Part shown: in pieces, positions 9,733-27,657 of the stretch
Numbering within the stretch: the first letter of the stretch is position 1
Layout: each line of letters begins with the position of its first letter
Assembly (NCBI GenBank): GCA_964354495.1
Contig: CAYHAA010000001.1
Span: forward strand, 364,827 to 396,826
Source: an uncultured archaeon
GTDB taxonomy: Archaea > Asgardarchaeota > Thorarchaeia > Thorarchaeales > Thorarchaeaceae
Reading direction: 5' to 3'
Length of the DNA stretch: 32,000 nucleotides
Made by a program: the position numbers and the translations under genes
Notes under the pieces: model-generated
Told to the model about the DNA's origin: nothing
Database searches by the model: none
Seen by the model: only the letters and a program-made list of their open reading frames with translations

Positions 9733-10812
9733 GTGAGCGGAATGAAGATTGAGATGGATCTTGCCCCCTCCGAAGAGCTGAAAGAAAAACCATCTGATGT
9801 TCTAAAAGTGCCTTTTGGAACCGTGTTTACGGACCATATGTTTTCCATGCGATTCTCAGCGAGGAAGTGGCATGATGCTCGAATCCATCGTTACGCTCCA
9901 CTATCACTTAGCCCAGCAGCACTCTGTCTGCACTATGGGCAGGGCGTTTTCGAAGGCATGAAAGCACACAGACGTGGGCAACGCATACTCCTCTTTCGTC
10001 CAGAGAAGAACTTCGCGCGACTGAATCAGTCTGCGATTCGAATGGTGATGCCAGAGGTGAATGTTGATTTCGCCCTCGAAGCACTCAACGAGCTGCTACA
10101 CGTTGAACGTTGTTGGATACCTGAGGTTGCAGGAAGCTCTCTCTATATTCGCCCAACAATGATAGGCACTCAGGAGAAGCTTGGTGTGAAACCCTCTGAT
10201 GAGTACCTCTTCTATATCATATTGAGTCCGGTCGGGCCGTACTTCAAAGAAGGATTCAGTCCGGTCCACATCTATCTGAGCACTGATTATGTGCGTGCTG
10301 CTCGTGGCGGGACTGGTGCCGCCAAGACCATGGCCAACTATGCTGCTAGTCTGCTAGCGGGAACAAAGGCTGCGGAACTAGGTTATTCTCAGGTCCTATG
10401 GCTGGATGCGCTAGAGCGGAAGTACCTCGAGGAAGTAGGCACGATGAACATCTTTGTCAAATTCGATGACGAACTTGTCACCCCTCCTCTAACGGGCTCG
10501 ATTCTTGCAGGAATAACTCGTGATTCCGTTCTAACCCTCACAAAGGATATGGGGCTGAAAGTCAGTGAGCGTCAGATTTCTATCGACGAGGTGATAGATG
10601 GAATCACCTCAGGAAAAGTGATCGAGATGTTTGGTTGTGGCACAGCAGCAATCATAGCTCCGGTCGGATCTCTCTGGTACAAGGGTAGATCGTACACAAT
10701 AGCTGATGGCAAGACTGGAAGGTTGACGCGCGACCTCTTTGATGAGCTGACTGGAATCCAGTCTGGGGAACGAGAGGACCCCTATGGCTGGGTCGTTGAA
10801 CTAGAACAGTAG
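9733..10812 (+). CDS. ilvE: Branched-chain amino acid aminotransferase (PLP fold type IV)
   Basis: FGTVFTDHM, LHYGQGVFEGMKA, LYIRP, AKTMANYAASL (PLP-binding Lys), EEVGTMNIF, ILAGITRDS and FGCGTAA. Confidence 0.93.
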   Translation: MSGMKIEMDLAPSEELKEKPSDVLKVPFGTVFTDHMFSMRFSARKWHDARIHRYAPLSLSPAALCLHYGQGVFEGMKAHRRGQRILLFRPEKNFARLNQSAIRMVMPEVNVDFALEALNELLHVERCWIPEVAGSSLYIRPTMIGTQEKLGVKPSDEYLFYIILSPVGPYFKEGFSPVHIYLSTDYVRAARGGTGAAKTMANYAASLLAGTKAAELGYSQVLWLDALERKYLEEVGTMNIFVKFDDELVTPPLTGSILAGITRDSVLTLTKDMGLKVSERQISIDEVIDGITSGKVIEMFGCGTAAIIAPVGSLWYKGRSYTIADGKTGRLTRDLFDELTGIQSGEREDPYGWVVELEQ

Positions 10813-11292: not shown

Positions 11293-11808
11293 GTGGTTCA
11301 TCTGCCATCGCAACTGGTCGTTGATATGAATCGATGCACTGGGTGCCGTCTATGTGAGCTTGCTTGCTCTGCGAAGCATGAGGGCAAATTCCAGCCTGGT
11401 CTTGCTCGACTGAAGATTGTGCGTTATGACGATTTGGGTCTAGATATTCCTAATGTCTGTGGTCCCTGTGAGACTGCGCCTTGCGTCGACATCTGTCCAG
11501 TGTATGCGATGCGGCGAGACCCTATCACCAAGATGACCTTTCTTGACGAAGACAAATGTATTCTCTGTAAGTCCTGTGTCGGTGCTTGTGTGAATGGGGT
11601 TATCCTGCTTGATACTGTCAGAATGAGAATCATCAAGTGCAACCACTGTGATGGCGTGCCTGAGTGTGCGAGAATCTGTCCAACTGGTGCTATAACCTAC
11701 AGCACTGCGACATCTCTAGCTCCTGCTGATCGCCATGGGAAGATCGTGAGGTACTTGAAAGAGATTGATCGCGTGAGTGCGACCCAAGAAACGCGTGGAG
11801 CTGATTGA
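11293..11808 (+). CDS. 4Fe-4S dicluster (DmsB-like) electron-transfer subunit of the aldehyde oxidoreductase
   Basis: Four Cys clusters: CTGCRLCELAC, CGPCETAPCVDICP, CILCKSCVGAC and CNHCDGVPECARICP. Overlaps the start of the AOR gene. Confidence 0.9.
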   Translation: MVHLPSQLVVDMNRCTGCRLCELACSAKHEGKFQPGLARLKIVRYDDLGLDIPNVCGPCETAPCVDICPVYAMRRDPITKMTFLDEDKCILCKSCVGACVNGVILLDTVRMRIIKCNHCDGVPECARICPTGAITYSTATSLAPADRHGKIVRYLKEIDRVSATQETRGAD

Positions 11809-13700
11809 CAATGGCAAGCGGCCATATGGGTAAGATACTGCGTGTCAATCTGACAGAAGGAGAGTTCACCACAGATCCCTTACCCAAGCGCTGGAAGAAG
11901 GAGTTCATCGGAGGAGATGGTTTCGGGGCGAAGATACTCTTCGAAGAAGTGCCCGCACGAATCGATCCGTTGAGTGAGAAGAACAAGTTGATTATCGCTA
12001 CAGGCCCCATCACAGGGACTCTGTGGCCGATGAGCGGTAGAACTGTATTCATCTCGAAGGCACCACTGACGGGAATCTGGGGTGAAAGTCATGTGGGAGG
12101 ATTCCTAGGTCCTGAGCTTAAGTATGCGGGCTATGATGTGCTTGTCATAGAGGGGATGTCTGAGAAACCTGTCTACATCAGTATTGAGGACTCAGACCTG
12201 CAAATCAGGAATGCACAACAGCTCTGGGGACTGACGACCGACACACTTACCAGTGCTATCAAAAAGGCGCACCATGATCCTGACATTCAAGTTGCAGCAA
12301 TAGGTCCTGCAGGGGAGCGACTTGTCCGATATGCCTCAGTGCTAGTCAATCATGCACGAGCTGCGGGCAGAACAGGCATGGGCGCTGTCCTCGGTAGCAA
12401 GAAGGTCAAGGCGATCGCAATCAGGGGGCATGGCGCTGTTGAGGTACACGACCATGAAGCCTTTGTGGACCTAGCCAAAGAAGCTCACTCCAGAGTACGC
12501 AGCAATCCTCAGGCTAAAGAAATGGGTAAGTATGGAACTTGGATACTGACTGCGGTGAAACAAGAGATTGGTGAGTTGCCAACCTATAACCATCAGACTG
12601 GAGTCTTTGATGGCTGGGAGAAGTTGAGCGGTGACTACATACGCCCAAAGTACACAGTCAGAGACAGAGCCTGCTTCGGCTGCAGTCTTGGCTGCAAGAA
12701 GCTCAACTATATCCGCGACGGCCCTTTTGCAGGTACTCTCGAGGAGGGTCCTGAATATGAGGGACTCATGGCATTTGGAAGTTCTCTGGGCATTGATGAC
12801 TACGCCACAGCCCTGAAAGCTAATCAGATTTGCAATAGATATGGACTGGACATAATCTCTGCAGGCGCTACAATAGGCTTCGCGATAGAGTCCTTTGTCA
12901 AGGGTGCAATCACAGAAAAAGACACAGGTGGTCTTAGGCTTCAATGGGGTGACAGGGAACAGATAATCAAACTGCTTCAGATGATTGCCAACAGAGATGG
13001 CTTTGGAGACCTCCTTGCGGAAGGAAGTAAGAGGGCTGCAGAAACCATCGGTCGTGGTACGAGCAAGTATGCTATTCATGTCAAAGGTATGGAAGTGTCC
13101 GGGCAAGACGGGCGTACCCATAGGAGTATCGCCCTAGGACATGCAACAGGTGCCCGTGGTGCCGATCATCTAAGAAGTCTGGTTGTGGTTGATCAATTGG
13201 GCTACAAAGACGTAGCAGCAAGAAGATGGGGCGCCGATAAGCTTCCAGAGATCATCGATCCCTACAATGAGAAGTACAAAGCCAATGCTGTATTCGAATC
13301 TGAGAATGCTTATTGCATTCGTGACGCCTTGATTGTATGCTGGTACTCAGTTTCATGGCCTCCAATTTTCTGGATGGAGGACTTTGCTAAGATGCTGCCT
13401 TTGGCTACTGGTGAGCAGTACTTTGGTCAAGTGAAAAACCTGACAACGATTGCGGAACGTCAAGTCACCCTTAAGCGCCTGTTCAATGCCAGAGAAGGAA
13501 TCACAAGAAAGGATGACCAACTCCCGGATAGGTTCACAAAGGAACCTATGCCAGAAGGGCCTGGGAAGGGACAAACAGTCAATCTTGAACCGATGCTCAA
13601 TGACTACTACACTCTCAGAGGATGGGATGTTGAAACAGGTCTACCAACGGATGAGACGATAGAACGACTATCACTGGAGTGGACGAGAGCCCACTCCTAG
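11805..13700 (+). CDS. aor: Tungsten aldehyde:ferredoxin oxidoreductase family protein (start TTG 11805 or ATG 11811)
   Basis: GKILRVNLT, KAPLTG..GESHVGG, AAGRTGMGAVLGSKKVKAI, CFGCSLGC, CNRYGLDIISAG, HVKGME..G.D.R and YY..RGWD..TG.PT. Confidence 0.92.
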   Translation: MTMASGHMGKILRVNLTEGEFTTDPLPKRWKKEFIGGDGFGAKILFEEVPARIDPLSEKNKLIIATGPITGTLWPMSGRTVFISKAPLTGIWGESHVGGFLGPELKYAGYDVLVIEGMSEKPVYISIEDSDLQIRNAQQLWGLTTDTLTSAIKKAHHDPDIQVAAIGPAGERLVRYASVLVNHARAAGRTGMGAVLGSKKVKAIAIRGHGAVEVHDHEAFVDLAKEAHSRVRSNPQAKEMGKYGTWILTAVKQEIGELPTYNHQTGVFDGWEKLSGDYIRPKYTVRDRACFGCSLGCKKLNYIRDGPFAGTLEEGPEYEGLMAFGSSLGIDDYATALKANQICNRYGLDIISAGATIGFAIESFVKGAITEKDTGGLRLQWGDREQIIKLLQMIANRDGFGDLLAEGSKRAAETIGRGTSKYAIHVKGMEVSGQDGRTHRSIALGHATGARGADHLRSLVVVDQLGYKDVAARRWGADKLPEIIDPYNEKYKANAVFESENAYCIRDALIVCWYSVSWPPIFWMEDFAKMLPLATGEQYFGQVKNLTTIAERQVTLKRLFNAREGITRKDDQLPDRFTKEPMPEGPGKGQTVNLEPMLNDYYTLRGWDVETGLPTDETIERLSLEWTRAHS

Positions 13701-17693: not shown

Positions 17694-20336
17694 ATGGCAA
17701 ATGTGAGCAGGAAGAACAGAAAAGATGTACAAGCGCAGAGTACTGTTGAAGCCATAAGAATGGCCTCTGCTTCAGTGTTGAGCACGACAACTGGCTTAGG
17801 CTATCCAGTTGGAAGTGCTAGAGGCGCTGGAAGCATGCTTGAGCAACATTCCGAAACAGTCTCCATGAGTATTGCACCTCTCATCTTCAACGTACGGGAT
17901 ACCTTGAACTCCTCTGAGGGATTGGAATTGCTCTCTATTGAGTGGAATCTGGAGAGAACTCCGGGACCCGGAGTCTTGCCTGAACAGCTAGTCGTTGTAG
18001 GCGGATCTGAAGGTGGCGTCGGGTCTCATGTCTGTGTCCTCTGCTGGGAGAAGGGTGTCGTAGACCCGTTCAGGATAGATCAGTATGTGAAGGTCATCGC
18101 CAAGAAACTTGGCGATATAGAGGCCGCTGTCATCAGCAATGATCTCAACTACGACCTGGATGGTCTATCTGTCATCCGACGTTTTGCTGACCGCCTAAAC
18201 AGCGTCTTGTTCGTAGACATGCTTGACAGGCGTTTTCAGGGCACATGGGATTCACTTCAAGTCAAAGATGAACACATGGCTATCGAAGCTATCGCAAAAA
18301 TGTCAACGTATGATGATTTTACGCTTGTTCCCCCAGGCCTGAGGATTGCTCGGCGTAATAGCCTTGAATTCAGGCTGCCAACATCGTCTAAGGAAGATTT
18401 CTTGGACCACTTTCAGCATCGGGTATTGACTCCCAGCGCAATAGAGATGCTGACAAAGACAGTCCCTGAACTAGGACAGGCCATACTTAGCGAGCTGAAT
18501 ACCTATGCATATGCGAGGGAGGAGGCTGATGTCGCTGAGGGGACAGTCTCAGTGTTGAAGGAGTATCTCAAGAGAGACACCGTAAAGATCTCAGACCTCC
18601 AGTCCATCAAGAAAGCAACAGGTGAGTTTGTCGGTCATCTCAATGATACCGTCGACTCGCTTGAGTCCATTGTTGATCAACACTCGAACTCTGGGAAGGC
18701 TCTGAGTATTACGGGGCATAGAAACGCTCTTCTTGCAGATATTGATGCAAACCACGAACGATTCGATGGTATCAATCGCACACTTGCTCACATGCTAGTT
18801 GTTCAAATCATGAAGTCCTTAGAGCGCGAATCATTTGGAGTGGAGGATATTCGTGCATGGCAACTACGAAGCGCTCTAAGCTATGCCATTGCATATGCGA
18901 AGAGAGTTGCACAGTACTTCGCCGAGGAACTCGATCACTATCTGATTGCTTCTGCCGCACGAAAGGCATTCTTTACCGCGCTTCGTGATTTTCGCCAAGA
19001 AACCGTGCAAGTTGGAATGGATCCAACTGACCTGATGCTCTTCGAGAAATTCTATGCTGAGGTTCAATCTCAGCTCAATGCATCCTTCTCAAGAAAATCA
19101 TACCAAGGTGTGCAGTATCATGATTTCATTCAGTTGATGGATACAATAACGCGGGAAATAATCGAGACCTTCAGGCATATCGATGTATGGAACCTGATTG
19201 ATTTCTCCGATGTTGCGGACATTGCTCGGTCTGAGATACAAAAGGAACATACAGATCGGTCAGGTGACGGAGCTCTTACCTCGGACGGCAATGCGCTCAT
19301 GAGCCTATTGAACGTGTTTCAGAACACTGTATCTGATATTATCCCGGATGTGGCCGACACTATTCTATCAAAACCTCTTATTCGAAAGATGATTGAGAAG
19401 ATTAGGTCCGATGGCACAGGTCTAGGTAATGAATTGGCAGTAGCAATTGAAAGTGTTGGTGAGAAGTCTGAGGAGTGGAAGAGAGAGGCTGTAGCGTGGG
19501 TTGAAGGCTTTCGAGATAGTGTGGACCCCACACAATCCACGCCTGTGAGTTTGCTTGCGCTACTACAGTATATCCATGAGCTGTTGGACCAAGTTGCATC
19601 ACCGAGTGCAATGGCCGATCGAGTGAAGGCAGAAGCTGATGCGAAAGAAGATCTCTACCAAGCCAGAGTCAATGAGTGGCAAACCGTCTGCAAAGAAATC
19701 GAACATGAGAACGAGTCAATTCAACAACGAAACAACAGACGTGAGGAGCTCATCGCAGAAGCCACCAGACAGTTCGAAACAGAGATGTCTGCATTTGAGC
19801 GACAAGTCCGCGAATATCAAGAAAAGGCAGAACAGAGAAACGCTTTGGCAGCAAGTGCAGCTGGAGCAGATATTTCACTGCCAGCACTTCCTACGGAACC
19901 AGTTCGTCCTTCTCCTCTAGAATCACGAGTTGACAAAATAAGAAGAAACAATCCAATTGAGCTTGAGAAGTCCCTCCCACCTGAACCGCAACCTGAACCA
20001 ACACTCCATTACTACACCGAGTTGCGAGACCTTCTATATGACAAACTGACTGAAATGAAAGAACGTGAAAAGAGCATGGAGGAAACATTTGCTCGGAGAG
20101 TCTTGCGGCTCCAGGCAGAGGGCATGGGAGCCATCGGAGAGATTGACATCAATATTGGTGATGATTTTCTGCAGCATCTGATGGACTCAGGGATTCGTAC
20201 TCTGGGCAAGCTACTTCCTCGTATCTCTCGCGTTCTCTTGAGGAACCCGAAGATACCTGGCCTCCTCTATCTTGTATCATACGAGTACTATGGCGACGGT
20301 TTGACTGTGTCAATTGGGAGCACGTTTTTGAGGTGA
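17694..20336 (+). CDS. Large hypothetical protein (880 aa), mostly helical with a coiled-coil and Pro-rich segments
   Basis: Long uninterrupted ORF. Coiled-coil at about aa 640-720, flanked by LPALPTEPVRPSP and LPPEPQPEP. No family recognised. Confidence 0.75.
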   Translation: MANVSRKNRKDVQAQSTVEAIRMASASVLSTTTGLGYPVGSARGAGSMLEQHSETVSMSIAPLIFNVRDTLNSSEGLELLSIEWNLERTPGPGVLPEQLVVVGGSEGGVGSHVCVLCWEKGVVDPFRIDQYVKVIAKKLGDIEAAVISNDLNYDLDGLSVIRRFADRLNSVLFVDMLDRRFQGTWDSLQVKDEHMAIEAIAKMSTYDDFTLVPPGLRIARRNSLEFRLPTSSKEDFLDHFQHRVLTPSAIEMLTKTVPELGQAILSELNTYAYAREEADVAEGTVSVLKEYLKRDTVKISDLQSIKKATGEFVGHLNDTVDSLESIVDQHSNSGKALSITGHRNALLADIDANHERFDGINRTLAHMLVVQIMKSLERESFGVEDIRAWQLRSALSYAIAYAKRVAQYFAEELDHYLIASAARKAFFTALRDFRQETVQVGMDPTDLMLFEKFYAEVQSQLNASFSRKSYQGVQYHDFIQLMDTITREIIETFRHIDVWNLIDFSDVADIARSEIQKEHTDRSGDGALTSDGNALMSLLNVFQNTVSDIIPDVADTILSKPLIRKMIEKIRSDGTGLGNELAVAIESVGEKSEEWKREAVAWVEGFRDSVDPTQSTPVSLLALLQYIHELLDQVASPSAMADRVKAEADAKEDLYQARVNEWQTVCKEIEHENESIQQRNNRREELIAEATRQFETEMSAFERQVREYQEKAEQRNALAASAAGADISLPALPTEPVRPSPLESRVDKIRRNNPIELEKSLPPEPQPEPTLHYYTELRDLLYDKLTEMKEREKSMEETFARRVLRLQAEGMGAIGEIDINIGDDFLQHLMDSGIRTLGKLLPRISRVLLRNPKIPGLLYLVSYEYYGDGLTVSIGSTFLR

Positions 20337-20337
20337 T

Positions 20338-22785
20338 TTGATGGCAAGTTCTTGGGTACTTAAGACACGACAGGCAAGTGAGGCTGGCAAAGAGATACTG
20401 TTACGGGAGGCTCTTGTCGCTCATATGCGAAGTACGAGAGACAGACAGCTCTTCACCGAGACACTGACTGAGTTTCGGCCGCTGAAGGATGTGTTTTCGT
20501 TCTTTGCCTCTTTCTATCTACATAGCTATCAGGGAATAAGATTAGTAAAGGCATCAGAATCTCCTGAACTTACTGCTGATGGTAAAGATGACCTTGCTCA
20601 AGAGGAACGCCATCAATTGGAACTTGAAGTGCGTCAGCTCTTTGGCGATAAACAGCGTGAGGAGATTCACACAGCGCGTATTATGAGTGAACTTGCGATA
20701 CGTTTCTGTGATGAATTAGGAGGCAAGGTGTCTTCCTCTCCAGATCTGCGTGAGAAGGTGCTTTCTCTCCTAAATGAGTATCTTCAGAGAATTCCATCAG
20801 AGTACTCTCCTAATCACGACATTGACTTCGTTGTTGAAGTCACGGGCTGGGGTACGCAATGGCGTGACGAGCTCTACACGAAAGCGTCAGGATTGAAAGA
20901 GAGTGCACTGTCGCTGAGGGAGGAGTTGTTGAGAGACCATCCTTCCGAAGTGCCTGAAACAACCGTCCTAAGAATGGGACTTGAACACATCCATGGTCGA
21001 GTTGAGTTTGCAAGGGGGCGTTTATCTGATGCCCTGATTCCTGCTCGTAATTGGGATGGTATTGCAGATGCCATTATTGAGCGTTTCTGCAGGAGTGGGG
21101 ATAAACTCAAGTGTGTGAAGCAAGCACACGAGATTAGACTTGCCCTGCTTGAGGCAATTGAGGAAAAGTACGATGCTCCTACTACCATCGAGGACTATGA
21201 GCAAAGGCTAGGATCTGTAGTCGCGGGTCCAATTGCTGATATCCTGTCCTCTGATTCTTCTCTGGTATTAGGCACATTGTCCAATCTTCTCACTATTGAT
21301 TCAGATGATATGAAGGCACAACTTCGCCGCAAGGGTATTGACGATATGTCAGTCATCGGAGAAGGGCTAAGAGCGCTCGCTGATGTTGTTGAAGATGCCC
21401 CATCAGGTCCGCAGATCAGCAAGCAAGAGATGGAGCTGTTAGAGCGTTCTCTGAAAACTCTGGAGAAACTTGAGCACACTCTCGAACACCCTGTGAAAGG
21501 GCTGTTGAAGGCTCGAGGCATTCGAGCTTCAGAACTTGACAAGATCTCCGTGGATCTCCTTGTCAAGGATCGGAAGAGCTTGGTGGGGATTGAGGTTGAG
21601 GTTCTTGACGAGTTGGCTAAGAAGATGCGAGTTCCACCTCCGGAAGAGGTCAAGAGGCTTGTTGATATACGGAGCCAAGTAAAAAGCGGAGCCCTGAGTA
21701 CGCTCGGCATATCTTCAGCCCGTGATTTTAGCAAACAACGCGTCGAGGAAGAGACAGTCAGGTCAATCAAGCTTGACATCGTCTGGCACTTCACCACTAG
21801 CATCTTAACAAACCTCACTAGGATAGTTGAGTCTTATATTCGGTCGAAGCAAGATTTGCTTCGTATCAAGGCACTATTGAAGAGTATATACGAAGACACT
21901 GATACAAGTCTGCAGTTTCTAAGAGAAGAGATTCTGGTCGATTTGGCTGCGATTCGTATCCATGAGTTTAAGGTAGTTCACCCTGAATTTGATGCAGCAA
22001 GCATCTGCACGTGGATGCATGCGCGTCTTTCGAGTAAAGATATGGTTGCTGCACGAAAGGACCTAGATGCTACTCCAAGTCCTGCCTTCGAGGGTATAGC
22101 CGACAAGCCACTTGAGATGAGTGGACTCGAGTATGACAACTATGCTATTGCTTTTGACATAATGCAGCGTTTCTTGAAACAGGAACGGCTCGAAAAGCTT
22201 GCCAAGGAGGAATACGCTTTCGAAACTAAGCAGAAAGAGCAAATCTTCCTCGAGTCAAAGCGGGAATCTATCGATGTTCTGACGTACTTGCATAATAAGG
22301 CTCAGACTGTATTTCGTGCCATAGGTCGTGTCGGAACCAAAGGTCTGGAATGGTCCCAGAGCGATACCTCGAAGTGTTCTAACCTATTGGCGTACTACAT
22401 CAAGACTGGTCGTGGAAGACTCATCTGTTCTGCATGTGGCACTGTTTCAAGGGAGAATAAATGCCCGCAGCACGGCACATCCTTCATGAAGAGGGCAAAT
22501 GATATGGATAATCTAGCGATATTCATGATGAGAGCAAACTATGAGATTAAGGATGGTCTTATTGGGAGGAGTGCCGAACAGATGCCTTGGGACAAGGCAA
22601 AATCAAGCATCGAGCGCGAAATTGGCATCCTGAAGCGAAATGGCAAGTTGACCTCAAAGACCAATCTTAAGGAGCTTCTCCCTGGAGAGATCAATTATGT
22701 GATCGGTCCTGCAATTTGTGAAATCATTGGCAAGTACTTCAACGAGTCTCTTGTCTATGCAGCCCGTCGAGCAGATGTCGCCTAA
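20338..22785 (+). CDS. Large hypothetical protein (815 aa), helical with a C-terminal Zn-finger; one base after the upstream stop
   Basis: Starts 1 nt after the previous stop, with a GAGGTGA motif spanning that stop. CSACG...KCPQHG motif near the C-terminus. Confidence 0.75.
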   Translation: MMASSWVLKTRQASEAGKEILLREALVAHMRSTRDRQLFTETLTEFRPLKDVFSFFASFYLHSYQGIRLVKASESPELTADGKDDLAQEERHQLELEVRQLFGDKQREEIHTARIMSELAIRFCDELGGKVSSSPDLREKVLSLLNEYLQRIPSEYSPNHDIDFVVEVTGWGTQWRDELYTKASGLKESALSLREELLRDHPSEVPETTVLRMGLEHIHGRVEFARGRLSDALIPARNWDGIADAIIERFCRSGDKLKCVKQAHEIRLALLEAIEEKYDAPTTIEDYEQRLGSVVAGPIADILSSDSSLVLGTLSNLLTIDSDDMKAQLRRKGIDDMSVIGEGLRALADVVEDAPSGPQISKQEMELLERSLKTLEKLEHTLEHPVKGLLKARGIRASELDKISVDLLVKDRKSLVGIEVEVLDELAKKMRVPPPEEVKRLVDIRSQVKSGALSTLGISSARDFSKQRVEEETVRSIKLDIVWHFTTSILTNLTRIVESYIRSKQDLLRIKALLKSIYEDTDTSLQFLREEILVDLAAIRIHEFKVVHPEFDAASICTWMHARLSSKDMVAARKDLDATPSPAFEGIADKPLEMSGLEYDNYAIAFDIMQRFLKQERLEKLAKEEYAFETKQKEQIFLESKRESIDVLTYLHNKAQTVFRAIGRVGTKGLEWSQSDTSKCSNLLAYYIKTGRGRLICSACGTVSRENKCPQHGTSFMKRANDMDNLAIFMMRANYEIKDGLIGRSAEQMPWDKAKSSIEREIGILKRNGKLTSKTNLKELLPGEINYVIGPAICEIIGKYFNESLVYAARRADVA

Positions 22786-22890: not shown

Positions 22891-24288
22891 ATGACTAAGT
22901 TTGTGCCGAAAGGAGTTATGCCAGCGCTCGTAACACCATTCACCAGAGATGGTGACATCAATGAAGAAGGCTTCAAACAGGTAATTGACTACACTATCAG
23001 TAAAGGTGCAACTGGAGTTGTACCAGCTGGAACGACTGGAGAATTCTCTTATATGCGTACGGAGGAGCGTAAGAAACTCCTGAAGCTCACGGTAGAGTAC
23101 GTTGACGGCCGTGTTCCAATTATCGCCGGCACTGGCCAGAATAGCACAAGAGCGACCGTGCTCTTGACCAAATACGCTGCAGACATCGGATGTGATGCAG
23201 CTATCGTGATTTCACCCTACTATCTCAGACCTGATGACAAGGGATACTATGAGCACTATGCAACAGTGGCACGTCAAGGTGACCTGCCACTGGTTCTGTA
23301 CAATCTCCCCCAATGCACCCTTGGAGTTCTCAATTCCAATGTAGTAGAAGATCTCGCTGAGATAGACAATGTTGTGGGCATAAAGGACAGCAGCGGTAAT
23401 ATGCCATATCTCCTGGAATTGCTCCAGAAAGTAAATGGAAGAATAGAAGTCATAGTTGGAGCTGATGAGTGCTTCCTTTCTGCAGTGGCTGCTGGAGTCA
23501 AGGCGGCGATTCTTGCTACAGCGAATCTCATTCCGCATATTTGGCTTGAGATCATGCATAAAGTCCAGAAGGGAAAGATCGAAGAGGCTGCGAAGCTGCA
23601 GAACTCGGCGCAGACATTAGCACGTCTTATCCTGAAGAATGGTGCAGCACCGCCTATTAAGGCAGGTCTACGAATGATGGGCATCAATGCAGGCAAGAGT
23701 AGGATGCCACTTGATACTGGAGGGACCATGACTCCTGAAACCAAAGAAGAAATCCGTATTGAGCTTGAGAAACTTGGAGTCTTAGAAGAACTCGAGCATG
23801 CTTCAATCCAGCGAAACATCCAGATATTTGATGCGCTGCTGCAGCAAGGATTCAGTATCAGTGACTTGTCGAATGTCAAACAGAGCTCCGCTTCAAATGA
23901 TACTGTGTCTGTGGGCATTGCCACAGGGAGCAAGAATAGCCCTATGGGCGAAACCTTCGTCAAGCTTCTCACAATGCCAAAAATCGGTCACGAAGCCCTC
24001 ACGGTCATTCTCGAGCCGAACTTGGCGGTTCGCCCCAGTAGCCTCATGTTTCCAATCAGGAAAATCGAATCGATGCGACAGGCATCCCTATTCTATGGCC
24101 CAGTTCAATCTGGAGCTGCGCGAGCCATGGCTTCCTATCTTGAGAAAGGCAAGATTCCAAACAAATCAATAGAAGATGATGTGATGATCATGGCATTGGA
24201 TGTTGACCTGAATTCCAAGGACCGCCGACAGGTCGTTTCAGCAACACAAGAGGCTGTTGAAAAAGCCCTCGCTGGCATATGGAGGTAA
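22891..24288 (+). CDS. DapA/NAL-family class I aldolase fused to a degenerate formaldehyde-activating-enzyme (Fae)-like domain (subunit 1)
   Basis: GVMPALVTPF, GTTGEF, SPYY, YNLP and IKDSSG (Schiff-base Lys). The C-terminal GHEAL.VILEPNLAVRP...FYGPVQSGAARA...G.IP resembles the middle part of Fae. Confidence 0.85.
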   Translation: MTKFVPKGVMPALVTPFTRDGDINEEGFKQVIDYTISKGATGVVPAGTTGEFSYMRTEERKKLLKLTVEYVDGRVPIIAGTGQNSTRATVLLTKYAADIGCDAAIVISPYYLRPDDKGYYEHYATVARQGDLPLVLYNLPQCTLGVLNSNVVEDLAEIDNVVGIKDSSGNMPYLLELLQKVNGRIEVIVGADECFLSAVAAGVKAAILATANLIPHIWLEIMHKVQKGKIEEAAKLQNSAQTLARLILKNGAAPPIKAGLRMMGINAGKSRMPLDTGGTMTPETKEEIRIELEKLGVLEELEHASIQRNIQIFDALLQQGFSISDLSNVKQSSASNDTVSVGIATGSKNSPMGETFVKLLTMPKIGHEALTVILEPNLAVRPSSLMFPIRKIESMRQASLFYGPVQSGAARAMASYLEKGKIPNKSIEDDVMIMALDVDLNSKDRRQVVSATQEAVEKALAGIWR

Positions 24289-24294
24289 TCATTC

Positions 24295-25773
24295 GTGTAC
24301 AATGGTAGCTATCGTTTTCAAGGCGTCTATCCAGCATTGGTCACACCCTTTGACGAGAACGGTGTGAATGAGAAGCAGTACAGAGGTCTCATTGATTATA
24401 CGATTAAAGCCGGAGCCACAGGTATTGTTCCCTGCGGAACAACCGGTGAATTTACCAGCATGAGGTTCGATGAAAAAGTTGAAGCTATCAGAATTGCCTG
24501 TGAAGCGGCAAAGGGCAGAGTTCCCGTTCTTGCAGGGACTGGCGCTGCATACACTGGCGATGCTATCAAGCTGACGCGACGAGCTGCCGAGCTCGGAGCT
24601 TCAGCGGCTCTGGTGGTCTCTCCATACTTCCTGAAACCTTCACACAAAGAGATATTCGAGCATTTTGAGAAGATTGCGAATAATAGCGACATTCCCATCT
24701 TCATCTACAATATTCCTCAGGTAACTGGTGTTCCCATCCACTGGACTCTTGTTGATGGTCTAAGGGAGATTGATGGAATTGCAGGAATGAAGGATTCAAG
24801 CGGTGACCTGGTCAATCTGACAACAATCCTTGTTCGCAGACCCGAGAGTTTCCAAGTGGTTATCGGTCATGATGAGGTAGCACTTCCTGGACTCGCCTCG
24901 GGTTGTGATGGGGCAATACTTGCAAGTGCCAACATTTTTCCTGACAGGTACATCAAGATGCAGACTGCTTTGGCTAGTGGCTACCTCAAGGAAGCCATGA
25001 TCATCCAACGAAGCATCCAGAACACAGTTCGCATCTTAGTAAACCGTGGTGGAGGAATGGCTGTAAAGGCTGCCCTGAATATGATGGGTATCCCTGTCGG
25101 AAAGGCTAGACCGCCTCTCCAGATTGGTGACTCTCTCAGCTATGCTGATCTCGATGAACTGAGGGCTTGCCTTGAGGATCTGCAAATGATTCCCAGAGGG
25201 CCGGTCACATTCAAGATGAGAGGCCAGTCAATAGTTGCAGAGAACTACCCCAAGGCTGTGGGGCAAGTACCTGATACTGTTCAGGATTTGACTCTCCTTC
25301 ATGGAGAGTCGTTATTCGGTTCAAACACTGAAGTGGCTCATGTCGACCTCATCCTTGGAATTAGAGACGGCCCAATGAAGGAGGCTCTTGCCGATGCAGG
25401 AAAGATGGCTGATGATCGGCATCCAGCCAATGTGATAAAGGATCTTGAGCTCACAACTGTGTTTGCTCCGACAGTGACTATCACATCTGAGAAGCACAAG
25501 AAGCTCGTCTACGATGTCGCCCAGAAGGCGGTCAAAGATGCTGTCAAGCGTACCATTACGGATATGATCATCCCAGAAGAGCTGATTCCTGACCTTGTGA
25601 TTGCTGTGAATGTCTTTGTTCACCCGAGCGCTGTGAATCCAAGGCGAGTTCACATCAATAACTTCATTGCTGTTCGTCATGCCATCCGACGTGCAATTGA
25701 AGGCCGTCAGAGTGTTGATGAGATAATCGCGCGTAAGGATTCTGCTAGGCATCCATTTGCCTATAACCCATAG
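24295..25773 (+). CDS. DapA/NAL-family class I aldolase fused to a Fae domain (subunit 2)
   Basis: GTG start with GGAGGT upstream. GVYPALVTPF, GTTGEF, YNIP and MKDSSG. The C-terminal GESLFG..EVAHVDLILG..DGP...AQKAV...IIP...VFVHP...AIRRAIEG...ARHPF resembles Fae. Confidence 0.88.
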   Translation: MYNGSYRFQGVYPALVTPFDENGVNEKQYRGLIDYTIKAGATGIVPCGTTGEFTSMRFDEKVEAIRIACEAAKGRVPVLAGTGAAYTGDAIKLTRRAAELGASAALVVSPYFLKPSHKEIFEHFEKIANNSDIPIFIYNIPQVTGVPIHWTLVDGLREIDGIAGMKDSSGDLVNLTTILVRRPESFQVVIGHDEVALPGLASGCDGAILASANIFPDRYIKMQTALASGYLKEAMIIQRSIQNTVRILVNRGGGMAVKAALNMMGIPVGKARPPLQIGDSLSYADLDELRACLEDLQMIPRGPVTFKMRGQSIVAENYPKAVGQVPDTVQDLTLLHGESLFGSNTEVAHVDLILGIRDGPMKEALADAGKMADDRHPANVIKDLELTTVFAPTVTITSEKHKKLVYDVAQKAVKDAVKRTITDMIIPEELIPDLVIAVNVFVHPSAVNPRRVHINNFIAVRHAIRRAIEGRQSVDEIIARKDSARHPFAYNP

Positions 25774-25989
25774 GTCCGCTCTCAATGAAGTGTGACATGG
25801 TCATACGCTTGACAGTGGCCTCCGTCTATCCTAAAGCATCATTGGCCATTTGTTAAGTCTGCAAAAACTGACATTACACTAATCAGGACTCCTACATACA
25901 TCCTTGGAGTTCCAAAACGGGTGCTCCCCCAGAATTGCCTCTGCACCTCCTTTGAGAGCGTTCTATGGCACCATTCTGTTTGAATCCTC

Positions 25990-25997
25990 TATATATA
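25990..25997. promoter_or_regulatory. Palindromic TATA-like element
   Basis: TATATATA in a long intergenic region, about 80 nt upstream of the small ORF at 26079. Confidence 0.35.
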
Positions 25998-26078
25998 CTT
26001 CAGCGTTGTATGTTGTACAAGTCTTGCATCCCTCTTAGACTGTCGCGTCATCACCACATCCGTCGGAGTAAAACAGGA

Positions 26079-26249
26079 ATGGTTGAGAACTACATCATTC
26101 GCATTGGCGATATTCCCTCTCGGAAAATTCGCAAGAGTGTTCGCGGGTTCTTGGAGGATGAAGATGTCGCTGTTGTAGTCAATGATGGACAGATATTCGA
26201 CGTAGTGCTCGAAAAGAATCAGCTTGTCATGAAGTCTGACGAACTCTGA
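26079..26249 (+). CDS. Small hypothetical protein (56 aa)
   Basis: MVENYIIRIGDIPSRKIRKSVRGFLEDEDVAVVVNDGQIFDVVLEKNQLVMKSDEL has a protein-like composition, whereas the upstream 38 codons of the tracked ORF do not. GGAG/AGGA motifs upstream. Confidence 0.5.
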   Translation: MVENYIIRIGDIPSRKIRKSVRGFLEDEDVAVVVNDGQIFDVVLEKNQLVMKSDEL

Positions 26250-26529: not shown

Positions 26530-27657
26530 GTGCTAGAGTTTCGAGTGCTCTCACTTCTGAAGGATTTGGTGGCGACAAGCTCAGAAAACCCTCCTGGCCG
26601 TGAGGACAAAGTCGCCAAGGTGCTGCGTGACCATATGGAATCGCATGGAATAGGTTGTGTGTCAGTGGGTCCGAGCAGGCGCCCAAATCTGATATTCTCG
26701 AGTCATGATGGTTGCCGCGGCAACTTGGTCATGCATGGCCATATGGATACTGTGCCTATTGGCAAACCAGAGGCTTGGTCTCACGATCCCTTTGGATCGG
26801 AGATTGTTGATGGCCTTCTCTACGGAAGAGGAGCTTGTGATATGAAGGGTCCAGTCGCGGCACTAGCAGAGACCCTCATCATCTATGCTCAAGAACATCA
26901 TAATCAGCCTCTTCTTGTGCTCAACACATCAGATGAGGAGATAGGCTTTTCAGGTGCAGAAAAGGTAGTCAAGAGCGGGGAACTCGCTGGGGTAAGATAC
27001 GGAGTCTGTGCAGAACCCACTAATTTGCAGGTCCTTGCTGGGGAGAAGGGCCTGTTCTGGTCAAGGGTGGTGGCGACTGGAAAATCCGCTCATGGTTCGC
27101 GCCCAGAGGAGGGAGTAAATGCGATCAACGCATGCATTGAAGCAATTGATGTCCTGCTTTCTGATGAATACCCCTATGAAAAAGATCGACTGCTAGGTAA
27201 ACCCACTATTAACCTCGGACTAATCCGTGGTGGTATCATGGCCAATATTGTTCCGGATAGCTGCGAAGCACATCTGGACTTTCGGACTGTTAAGGGGCAG
27301 ACTCCTGAATCTCTCTTGAAGTTGATGAACGAGCGACTTCACTCTGCAGGTCTATCTGATCTAGTAAAAGTGGAATACATGCATGGAAAACCAGCAGTCA
27401 TGACACCTCATGACTCGGTTATTGTACAGGTTGCGGTTGAGGAGGTAGAGAGAGTGACCGGAGTTCGTCCCACCCTGGGAGCAGCTACATATGGCACTGA
27501 CTGCTCCGTCCTGCAATCGAAGTCTGGAATCCTCAACATCATTTGTGGACCTGGGTCGATAGAGCAGGCACACCAGCCTAATGAGTATATCAGTCTGAAT
27601 CAGCTGTACAAGGCTGTTGATGCCTATCTAGGAATAGCTCGAAGATTTGACCATTGA
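26530..27657 (+). CDS. M20 family metallopeptidase/deacylase (ArgE/DapE-like)
   Basis: HGHMDTVP, YGRGACDMKG, DEEIG, AEPT, SAHGS.PE.GVNAI, GPGSIEQAHQPNE. Confidence 0.9.
   Translation: MLEFRVLSLLKDLVATSSENPPGREDKVAKVLRDHMESHGIGCVSVGPSRRPNLIFSSHDGCRGNLVMHGHMDTVPIGKPEAWSHDPFGSEIVDGLLYGRGACDMKGPVAALAETLIIYAQEHHNQPLLVLNTSDEEIGFSGAEKVVKSGELAGVRYGVCAEPTNLQVLAGEKGLFWSRVVATGKSAHGSRPEEGVNAINACIEAIDVLLSDEYPYEKDRLLGKPTINLGLIRGGIMANIVPDSCEAHLDFRTVKGQTPESLLKLMNERLHSAGLSDLVKVEYMHGKPAVMTPHDSVIVQVAVEEVERVTGVRPTLGAATYGTDCSVLQSKSGILNIICGPGSIEQAHQPNEYISLNQLYKAVDAYLGIARRFDH

Follow-up and report, generated by a model that had tools for sequence, protein, structure and literature searches.

In Fae-Hps, Fae is fused to an aldolase whose partner is formaldehyde, and formaldehyde is presumably handed over between the carbon–carbon lyase and a pterin. 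Here we describe two adjacent genes, A and B, that share this theme; they lie in a stretch of 32,000 nucleotides (the window) from the genome of an uncultured archaeon of the Thorarchaeaceae, and each encodes an aldolase barrel of the DHDPS family followed by a Fae-like domain. Whereas the aldolase of Fae-Hps is an HPS with the orotidine monophosphate decarboxylase fold and its Fae domain is N-terminal, A and B carry a class I Schiff-base barrel and a C-terminal Fae domain; moreover, in the genome from which the window was taken (the source genome) the Fae site appears to be split over two paralogous subunits, and the biosynthesis of tetrahydromethanopterin (H4MPT) was not found. Fae-Hps is present in many other Asgard families, in frames of 400-460 aa, and none was found in the source genome. 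With the Fae-Hps model NF009833, whose cut-off is 274 bits, the two proteins score 73 and 89.5 bits, and the match covers only the Fae part. A paper on Asgard metabolism mentions only Fae-Hps (PMC11291895), and our literature searches found no paper describing a DHDPS-Fae fusion.

The barrels find their best sequence match in DHDPS (DapA), with which they share the fold, the Schiff-base lysine, Tyr133 and Thr44/45; unlike DHDPS, they lack Arg138, stand in a genome without the lysine pathway and are followed by an extra Fae domain. The reaction that we propose for the pair, the joining of pyruvate and formaldehyde to 4-hydroxy-2-oxobutanoate (HOB), is the one for which E. coli RhmA/YfaU serves as HOB aldolase in a synthetic homoserine cycle, running from pyruvate and formaldehyde through HOB and homoserine to threonine (PMC8879981); the same review calls HOB a non-native metabolite. 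RhmA is a promiscuous class II metal aldolase acting on free formaldehyde, whereas the enzyme proposed here would be a dedicated class I aldolase coupled to a pterin. PanB and serine hydroxymethyltransferase likewise carry formaldehyde-level C1 units from a reduced pterin to a carbon nucleophile or back, but they have no homology to A and B and use different catalytic machinery (a metal and pyridoxal phosphate, respectively). Single-copy DHDPS-Fae fusions of Bathyarchaeia, Atabeyarchaeia and Lokiarchaeia-type archaea belong to the same family as A and B and, like them, have Cys or Val in place of Arg138; these uncharacterised proteins differ in being one chain with a complete set of Fae motifs, presumably a homo-oligomer, and their genes often stand beside that of a conserved protein, here called the barrel partner, to which we return below.

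Judged from sequence conservation, A and B are genuine, conserved genes under a wrong annotation that probably encode a two-subunit aldolase-Fae enzyme, a variant of the aldolase-Fae theme with a predicted function. As to that function, we regard it as a serious possibility, a little short of an even chance, that A and B are two subunits of one enzyme that would interconvert pyruvate plus a formaldehyde-level C1 unit with HOB in a pterin-coupled reaction.

Two aldolase-Fae fusions under a DapA label

Gene A (22891-24288) starts with ATG and encodes 465 aa, and gene B (24295-25773) starts with GTG and encodes 492 aa; these and all features of the pair named below are on the plus strand. The two co-oriented genes are 6 nt apart (24289-24294), and a Shine-Dalgarno-like GGAGGT for gene B (24281-24286) precedes the GTG by 8 nt; it still falls within gene A, where it takes up the final two sense codons and the T of the TAA stop. 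An earlier note on this DNA had described this layout, and every position that it gave proved correct; a gap of 5-10 nt between A and B, or an overlap, is also conserved in other lineages. Both domains named in that note were matched by Pfam in both proteins, DHDPS (PF00701) with E values of 5.9e-79 in A and 1.7e-70 in B, and Fae (PF08714) with 8e-27 and 8.5e-29. On the evidence of Pfam, alignments and a survey of 119 orthologues of A and 112 of B, the class I aldolase barrels span aa 7-276 of A (22909-23718) and aa 8-276 of B (24316-25122). The Fae-like domains, placed by Pfam and by alignment with Fae, occupy aa 339-461 of A (23905-24273), where the domain is truncated, and aa 337-488 of B (25303-25758). 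A and B are 33% identical from end to end and are therefore old paralogues. More than 110 clusters at 90% identity exist for each of them with the same two-domain architecture, which is therefore far beyond chance; most of the clusters come from Thorarchaeota, and their database name is nearly always 4-hydroxy-tetrahydrodipicolinate synthase.

The databases thus make A and B the DapA of lysine biosynthesis, and they do so because both proteins pass the NCBIfam dapA cut-off (TIGR00674; 220.2 bits for A and 226.6 for B against 206.15). Their closest sequence matches in the PDB are also DHDPS, and a deacylase of the ArgE/DapE-family M20 type is encoded 0.75 kb downstream of the pair. The catalytic set of DHDPS (Schiff-base Lys161, Tyr133 and Thr44/45) is kept as K165 (23383-23385), Y137 and T48/T49 in A and as K166 (24790-24792), Y138 and the two threonines in B, so that the Schiff-base lysine that the note had assigned to both barrels stands; it is found in 119/119 orthologues of A and in 108 of the 112 of B.

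What speaks against a DapA role is the position of E. coli Arg138, which we take to be the arginine that binds the carboxylate of aspartate semialdehyde. Aligned with a solved DHDPS ('lynlpqct' against 'lynvpgrt'), A has Cys142 here (23314-23316) and B has Val143 (24721-24723), and the arginine is replaced in every member: the residue is Cys in all 119 A orthologues, Val in 103/112 B orthologues, and Cys in 69 and Val in 4 of 73 single-copy fusions, never Arg. B further has PYF for PYY, with Phe at the Tyr107 position in 109 of its 112 orthologues. The source genome (3.3 Mb, 97.7% complete) gave no match to dapB, none to Asd (asd_EA, archaeal-type or any), none to homoserine dehydrogenase (Hom), and for lysA only a sub-threshold best score of 84.6 bits against a cut-off of 297.9, while control genomes gave matches for each of these; without dapB, asd or a lysA over the cut-off, DapA would have neither its substrate nor a next step. 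The fused Fae domain, too, has no role in the lysine pathway. As Arg138 is replaced and the pathway partners were not found, an ordinary DapA role for A and B is very unlikely, and we attach next to no probability to the database label; the view that they are not ordinary DHDPS had been put forward in the earlier note and is upheld here. The third DHDPS-family gene of the source genome is KdgD-like.

The M20 deacylase (window 26530-27657) just reaches the cut-off of the DapE-ArgE subfamily, and its place 0.75-1.8 kb downstream of the pair is kept across Thorarchaeota genomes. This context may help to explain the DapA label.

Fae-like domains and their cofactor

Alignment with Fae of M. extorquens (1Y5Y) divides the conserved features of Fae between the two proteins. 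The domain of A keeps the middle blocks LEPNL..RP..LMF and YGPVQSG, has neither the AHxD motif nor the C-terminal RHPF tail, and stops some 25 residues short; that of B aligns with 1Y5Y from end to end and keeps the N-terminal GE..EVAHVDL..G..GP, FVHP and the C-terminal RHPFAY, but is without the PNL loop and GPxQ. In an alignment with stand-alone Fae, Fae-Hps and the single-copy fusions, 40 columns are near-invariant (at least 85% invariance); B has kept 27 of these, A 15 and the pair as a whole 36, so the full set of Fae-invariant residues is absent from either chain alone. Among orthologues, the mean pairwise identity of the A domain is 0.57 in the N-terminal segment, 0.82 in the middle and 0.61 in the C-terminal segment, and that of the B domain 0.69, 0.64 and 0.75 by segment, with 0.78 in the tail. 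An AlphaFold2 model of the more degenerate A domain (pLDDT 92.9) has 1Y60 and 1Y5Y as its only significant matches in the PDB (E 1e-13, TM 0.71-0.81), and as modelled the domain is confirmed to have the Fae fold still. The pterin site in solved Fae (1Y5Y/1Y60) presumably lies between neighbouring subunits. Since the retained residues are complementary and the Fae site is shared between subunits in this way, the conservation pattern suggests that the two domains form one composite site at the A/B interface. They are the only two Fae domains of the source genome.

The same data can be read as the remains of an inactive Fae: the Fae-like domains would then be a non-catalytic module for oligomerisation or regulation, and the barrels a pyruvate aldolase for a larger aldehyde, e.g. 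for a 2-keto-3-deoxy sugar acid (KDG, YagE/YjhH-type). Both domains exceed the Pfam Fae cut-off (94.6 bits for A and 101 for B against 27) and fall below that of the NCBIfam Fae equivalog domain TIGR03126 (87.3 and 113.4 against 118), many conserved residues are missing from each domain alone, H4MPT biosynthesis and Ftr/Mtd were not found in the source genome, and in one Atabeyarchaeia genome the fusion is adjoined by genes for a glycerate kinase and a phosphoglycerate mutase. The losses are, however, complementary rather than random, with 36/40 columns kept jointly, and conservation in the retained halves matches that of the barrels (the middle segment of A at 0.82, the C-terminal segments of B at 0.75-0.78). 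In addition, the complementary pattern recurs in four distant lineages, and the Fae of single-copy relatives is complete and canonical (Pfam E 1e-57 to 1e-60). An inactive module is thus unlikely in our judgement. The phosphoglycerate-mutase-like gene beside the Atabeyarchaeia fusion was also considered as a member of a proposed homoserine kinase family, and this was rejected, as it is apgM.

The pterin that the composite site would bind is a separate matter. The earlier note had formaldehyde captured on H4MPT, and of the H4MPT genes that it proposed to look for, mch is present in the source genome and mtd and ftr were not found, so that H4MPT metabolism is largely lacking from what was recovered. 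The genome has Mch, formate-tetrahydrofolate ligase (FTHFS) and PanB; Ftr, Mtd and beta-ribofuranosylaminobenzene 5'-phosphate (beta-RFAP) synthase gave no match, an absence that in a metagenome-assembled genome (MAG) is no proof. By family, beta-RFAP synthase was found in 2/57 genomes of the window's own family (f1), and in the families with the single-copy form in 101/106 (f9), 7/7 (f12) and 3/3 (f13). The missing matches to Ftr, Mtd and beta-RFAP synthase, alongside the presence of FTHFS and PanB, leave that part of the earlier proposal, capture on H4MPT, unsupported for this organism; the cofactor is probably tetrahydrofolate or another pterin or analogue.

The split A/B form might have arisen as an adaptation to the loss of H4MPT, an explanation that looked good within Asgard archaea (2/57 in f1 against 101/106 in f9). 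It fails outside them and was rejected, as Ftr is present in a Korarchaeota-labelled genome that carries an A/B pair. In two Bathyarchaeia chromosomes that carry the single-copy form, Ftr is likewise present and beta-RFAP synthase gave no match.

A proposed HOB aldolase and its possible link to homoserine

We propose that A and B associate and that their Fae domains pack side by side, rebuilding one composite site for pterin and formaldehyde at the interface. A would provide the main aldolase site, since Cys142, Tyr111 and Lys165 are kept in all or most orthologues, while the barrel of B seems to be drifting (Val, Phe, and in some lineages no Lys). Formaldehyde is suggested as the aldehyde partner because the chemistry of the DHDPS family, a pyruvate enamine and an aldehyde, is here combined with a Fae domain. 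The pyruvate enamine and the formaldehyde-level C1 unit would thus be interconverted with HOB, the keto acid of homoserine, and the aldolase site would exchange formaldehyde directly with the reduced pterin on the Fae site, a pterin that in this genome is probably tetrahydrofolate or an analogue and not H4MPT. The conserved Cys at the aldehyde pocket may hold formaldehyde as a hemithioacetal. In one direction the enzyme would make HOB, and hence homoserine and threonine, from pyruvate and C1 without Asd or Hom; in the other it would dispose of HOB derived from homoserine. We consider synthesis and disposal about equally probable.

Another 2-oxoacid could take the place of pyruvate, in which case the pair would transfer a hydroxymethyl group from methylene-pterin to 2-oxoisovalerate or 2-oxobutanoate, as a class I analogue of PanB. 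It is generally known that PanB itself carries out such aldol chemistry between methylene-folate and a 2-oxoacid, the small Cys or Val at the Arg138 position leaves the pocket undefined, a branched-chain aminotransferase is encoded 12 kb upstream, and the fusion is conserved in a housekeeping-like manner. There is, however, no gap for such an enzyme to fill: PanB is present in the source genome and in 37/39 genomes of its family, and many Loki-type genomes have both PanB and the fusion. DHDPS-family enzymes also characteristically use pyruvate, and the network of gene neighbourhoods leads to homoserine and not to pantoate. This alternative is therefore quite improbable, and a role of A/B as a substitute for PanB was rejected on the same PanB counts.

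The neighbourhood network that favours HOB as the product or substrate of the pair runs through the barrel partner, a protein of about 430 aa that is highly conserved (78% mean column identity; 69% identity between Bathyarchaeia and Asgard archaea, and 65-69% between Thorarchaeota, Loki-type archaea and Bathyarchaeia). It gave no match in Pfam, NCBIfam or the ESM Atlas; its predicted structure is TIM-barrel-like, with weak fold matches and no convincing solved relative. Its gene is translationally coupled upstream of the fusion in Loki-type archaea, in at least 16 genomes of which it is coupled to the fusion or adjoins it, and divergently adjacent to the fusion in 57 of 78 Bathyarchaeia loci; further copies are at L023:1752-3056 and L071:3713-5050. 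In at least 14 Thorarchaeota genomes it adjoins a bona fide threonine synthase, and in at least 23 genomes of two Asgard families without Fae it forms part of an operon that encodes a short-chain dehydrogenase/reductase, the barrel partner, an aminotransferase, Hom and an aldehyde:ferredoxin oxidoreductase (AOR). Hom is rare in the families that carry Fae (3/76 in f1, 0/19 in f12, 0/3 in f13 and 0/11 in f27) and was found in 20/28 (f5), 17/21 (f22) and 7/11 (f14) genomes of families without Fae, where, as in all our family counts, related genomes are not independent samples. The source genome has two equivalogs of threonine synthase (ThrC). These observations make the barrel partner a candidate for a missing enzyme of homoserine metabolism. 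They also bear on HOB as the substrate, which the earlier note had offered as an example: the gene neighbourhoods and the lack of Asd and Hom in the source genome lend it indirect support.

Several details of these loci may be added. Examples of the Hom-AOR operon, in which the aminotransferase is of class I/II, are found at L132:3166-9759 and L131:2419-7798; it could oxidise aspartate semialdehyde to aspartate, or could instead run reductively, as a route to homoserine without aspartate kinase or Asd. In a Thorarchaeota genus, a threonine synthase equivalog with a C-terminal PadR-like winged-helix domain (L125:1156-2649) divergently adjoins the barrel partner gene, and similar frames of about 500 aa occur in at least 14 genomes. 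One of the two ThrC equivalogs of the source genome (C1:362770-363936, L130:1770-2936; 482 bits against a cut-off of 303) lies about 1 kb before the start of the window.

A number of points weigh against a pterin-coupled HOB aldolase. The link to homoserine runs via a third protein, the uncharacterised barrel partner, whose gene in the source genome is on another contig, away from the pair (C17:40838-42106; L122:6836-8113, minus strand). The barrel partner occurs without any Fae (f5 and f22) and the fusion without the barrel partner (0/19 in f12 and 0/3 in f13); strict co-occurrence of the two was accordingly rejected. Several Loki-type genomes (f9) hold both Hom and the fusion, and no homoserine kinase (ThrB) over the cut-off was found in the source genome. 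The other neighbours of the pair in Thorarchaeota, and of the fusion in Bathyarchaeia, are mostly housekeeping synteny (a tRNA methyltransferase, M24 and M20 peptidases and an AlaX-like protein). Nor does the split form go cleanly with a loss of H4MPT, given the Ftr of the Korarchaeota-labelled genome with a pair. As for the proposed architecture, the evidence for a heteromer with a composite site is conservation only; Fae forms pentamers whereas DHDPS forms dimers or tetramers, which gives no clear geometry for an A/B assembly.

In its widest form, the proposal would make A/B, together with the undivided fusions found in hundreds of species of Bathyarchaeia and Asgard archaea, a natural dedicated HOB aldolase that joins pyruvate directly with pterin-bound C1, and would open a way into or out of homoserine and threonine without aspartate kinase, Asd or Hom; the composite Fae site of Thorarchaeota would use folate, and the barrel partner would be a further missing enzyme of the pathway. 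We find this wider version rather doubtful as a whole. If it were true, very abundant sediment archaea (Bathyarchaeia and Asgard) would own an unrecognised reaction, making or breaking a carbon–carbon bond, that connects pyruvate with the C1 pool; these Wood-Ljungdahl organisms would have a natural version of the engineered homoserine cycle. So far, HOB aldolase chemistry is known only from promiscuous side activity, of which synthetic methylotrophy makes use, and a natural pterin-coupled enzyme that shields formaldehyde would be directly useful to pathway engineers. The composite site of Thorarchaeota would be the first folate-specific formaldehyde-activating site, and reconstructions of Asgard metabolism would change, as these genes are now counted as DapA of lysine biosynthesis with no other step in the genome. 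In the split, complementary Fae site one would also have a clear case from nature of an interface active site that was subfunctionalised once its gene had been duplicated.

Distribution, origin and neighbourhood of the pair

In a survey of the phylum that sampled 301 genomes, 71 of the 76 genomes from the window's family gave Fae matches; nearly all of these genomes have exactly two matches, both weak, which correspond to the A/B pair. Other families of the phylum have a canonical Fae in frames of the Fae-Hps size, and many have a second match in frames of 495-520 aa, which are the single-copy DHDPS-Fae fusions, whose Fae is complete. Among species-representative genomes, a scan returned 480 stretches encoding relatives; the best 80 of these came from 3 Asgard genomes (including Atabeyarchaeia), 76 labelled Bathyarchaeia and 1 labelled Thermoproteota only, and in 72 of 78 loci examined the aldolase and Fae lie within one open reading frame. 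B-type proteins occur also in a Korarchaeota/Thermoproteota MAG, in Anaerolineae bacteria and in one further lineage, and in each of these, as in Thorarchaeota, an A-type gene is immediately upstream of B.

In a maximum-likelihood tree the B-types form one clade (100/99), the A-types another (100/99) and the single-copy forms a third group. Because the A and B clades are separate and A lies upstream of B in these lineages, the tree indicates that the pair derives from one ancient duplication of an undivided aldolase-Fae fusion and was then co-inherited as a unit. In each of the 4/4 pairs examined, exactly one subunit keeps the Cys at the Arg138 position. Some B-types, P0109 and P0255, have lost the Schiff-base Lys (GLSDASG and GILDATG), and P0255 lacks Tyr133 as well; from these residues, the B barrel of their lineages is a predicted pseudo-aldolase. 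The single Cys per pair, together with the loss of Lys in a few B-types, suggests that each pair needs only one of its aldolase sites. We also considered whether the change of Tyr107 to Phe in B points to a heterodimer formed through the tight-dimer interface of DHDPS. This was set aside as ambiguous, the B of the Korarchaeota-labelled genome having YY, another B FY and the A of Anaerolineae FF.

Directly upstream of the pair, the window encodes proteins of 880 and 815 aa (17694-20336 and 20338-22785) that gave no Pfam match. Their genes precede the pair in other Thorarchaeota genomes too (L033 and L035), where CutA1 lies between; CutA1 is missing here. Downstream of gene B is a small open reading frame (25965-26249), at the site of which two other Thorarchaeota genomes have frames of about 70 aa that are 32% identical (E 5e-10); the frame in the window is only faintly similar to them. 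Farther upstream, 9-13 kb from the pair, are genes for an AOR (11805-13700) and a branched-chain aminotransferase (9733-10812; IlvE equivalog), and the former is 37% identical to the AOR of the Hom operon in other Asgard families.

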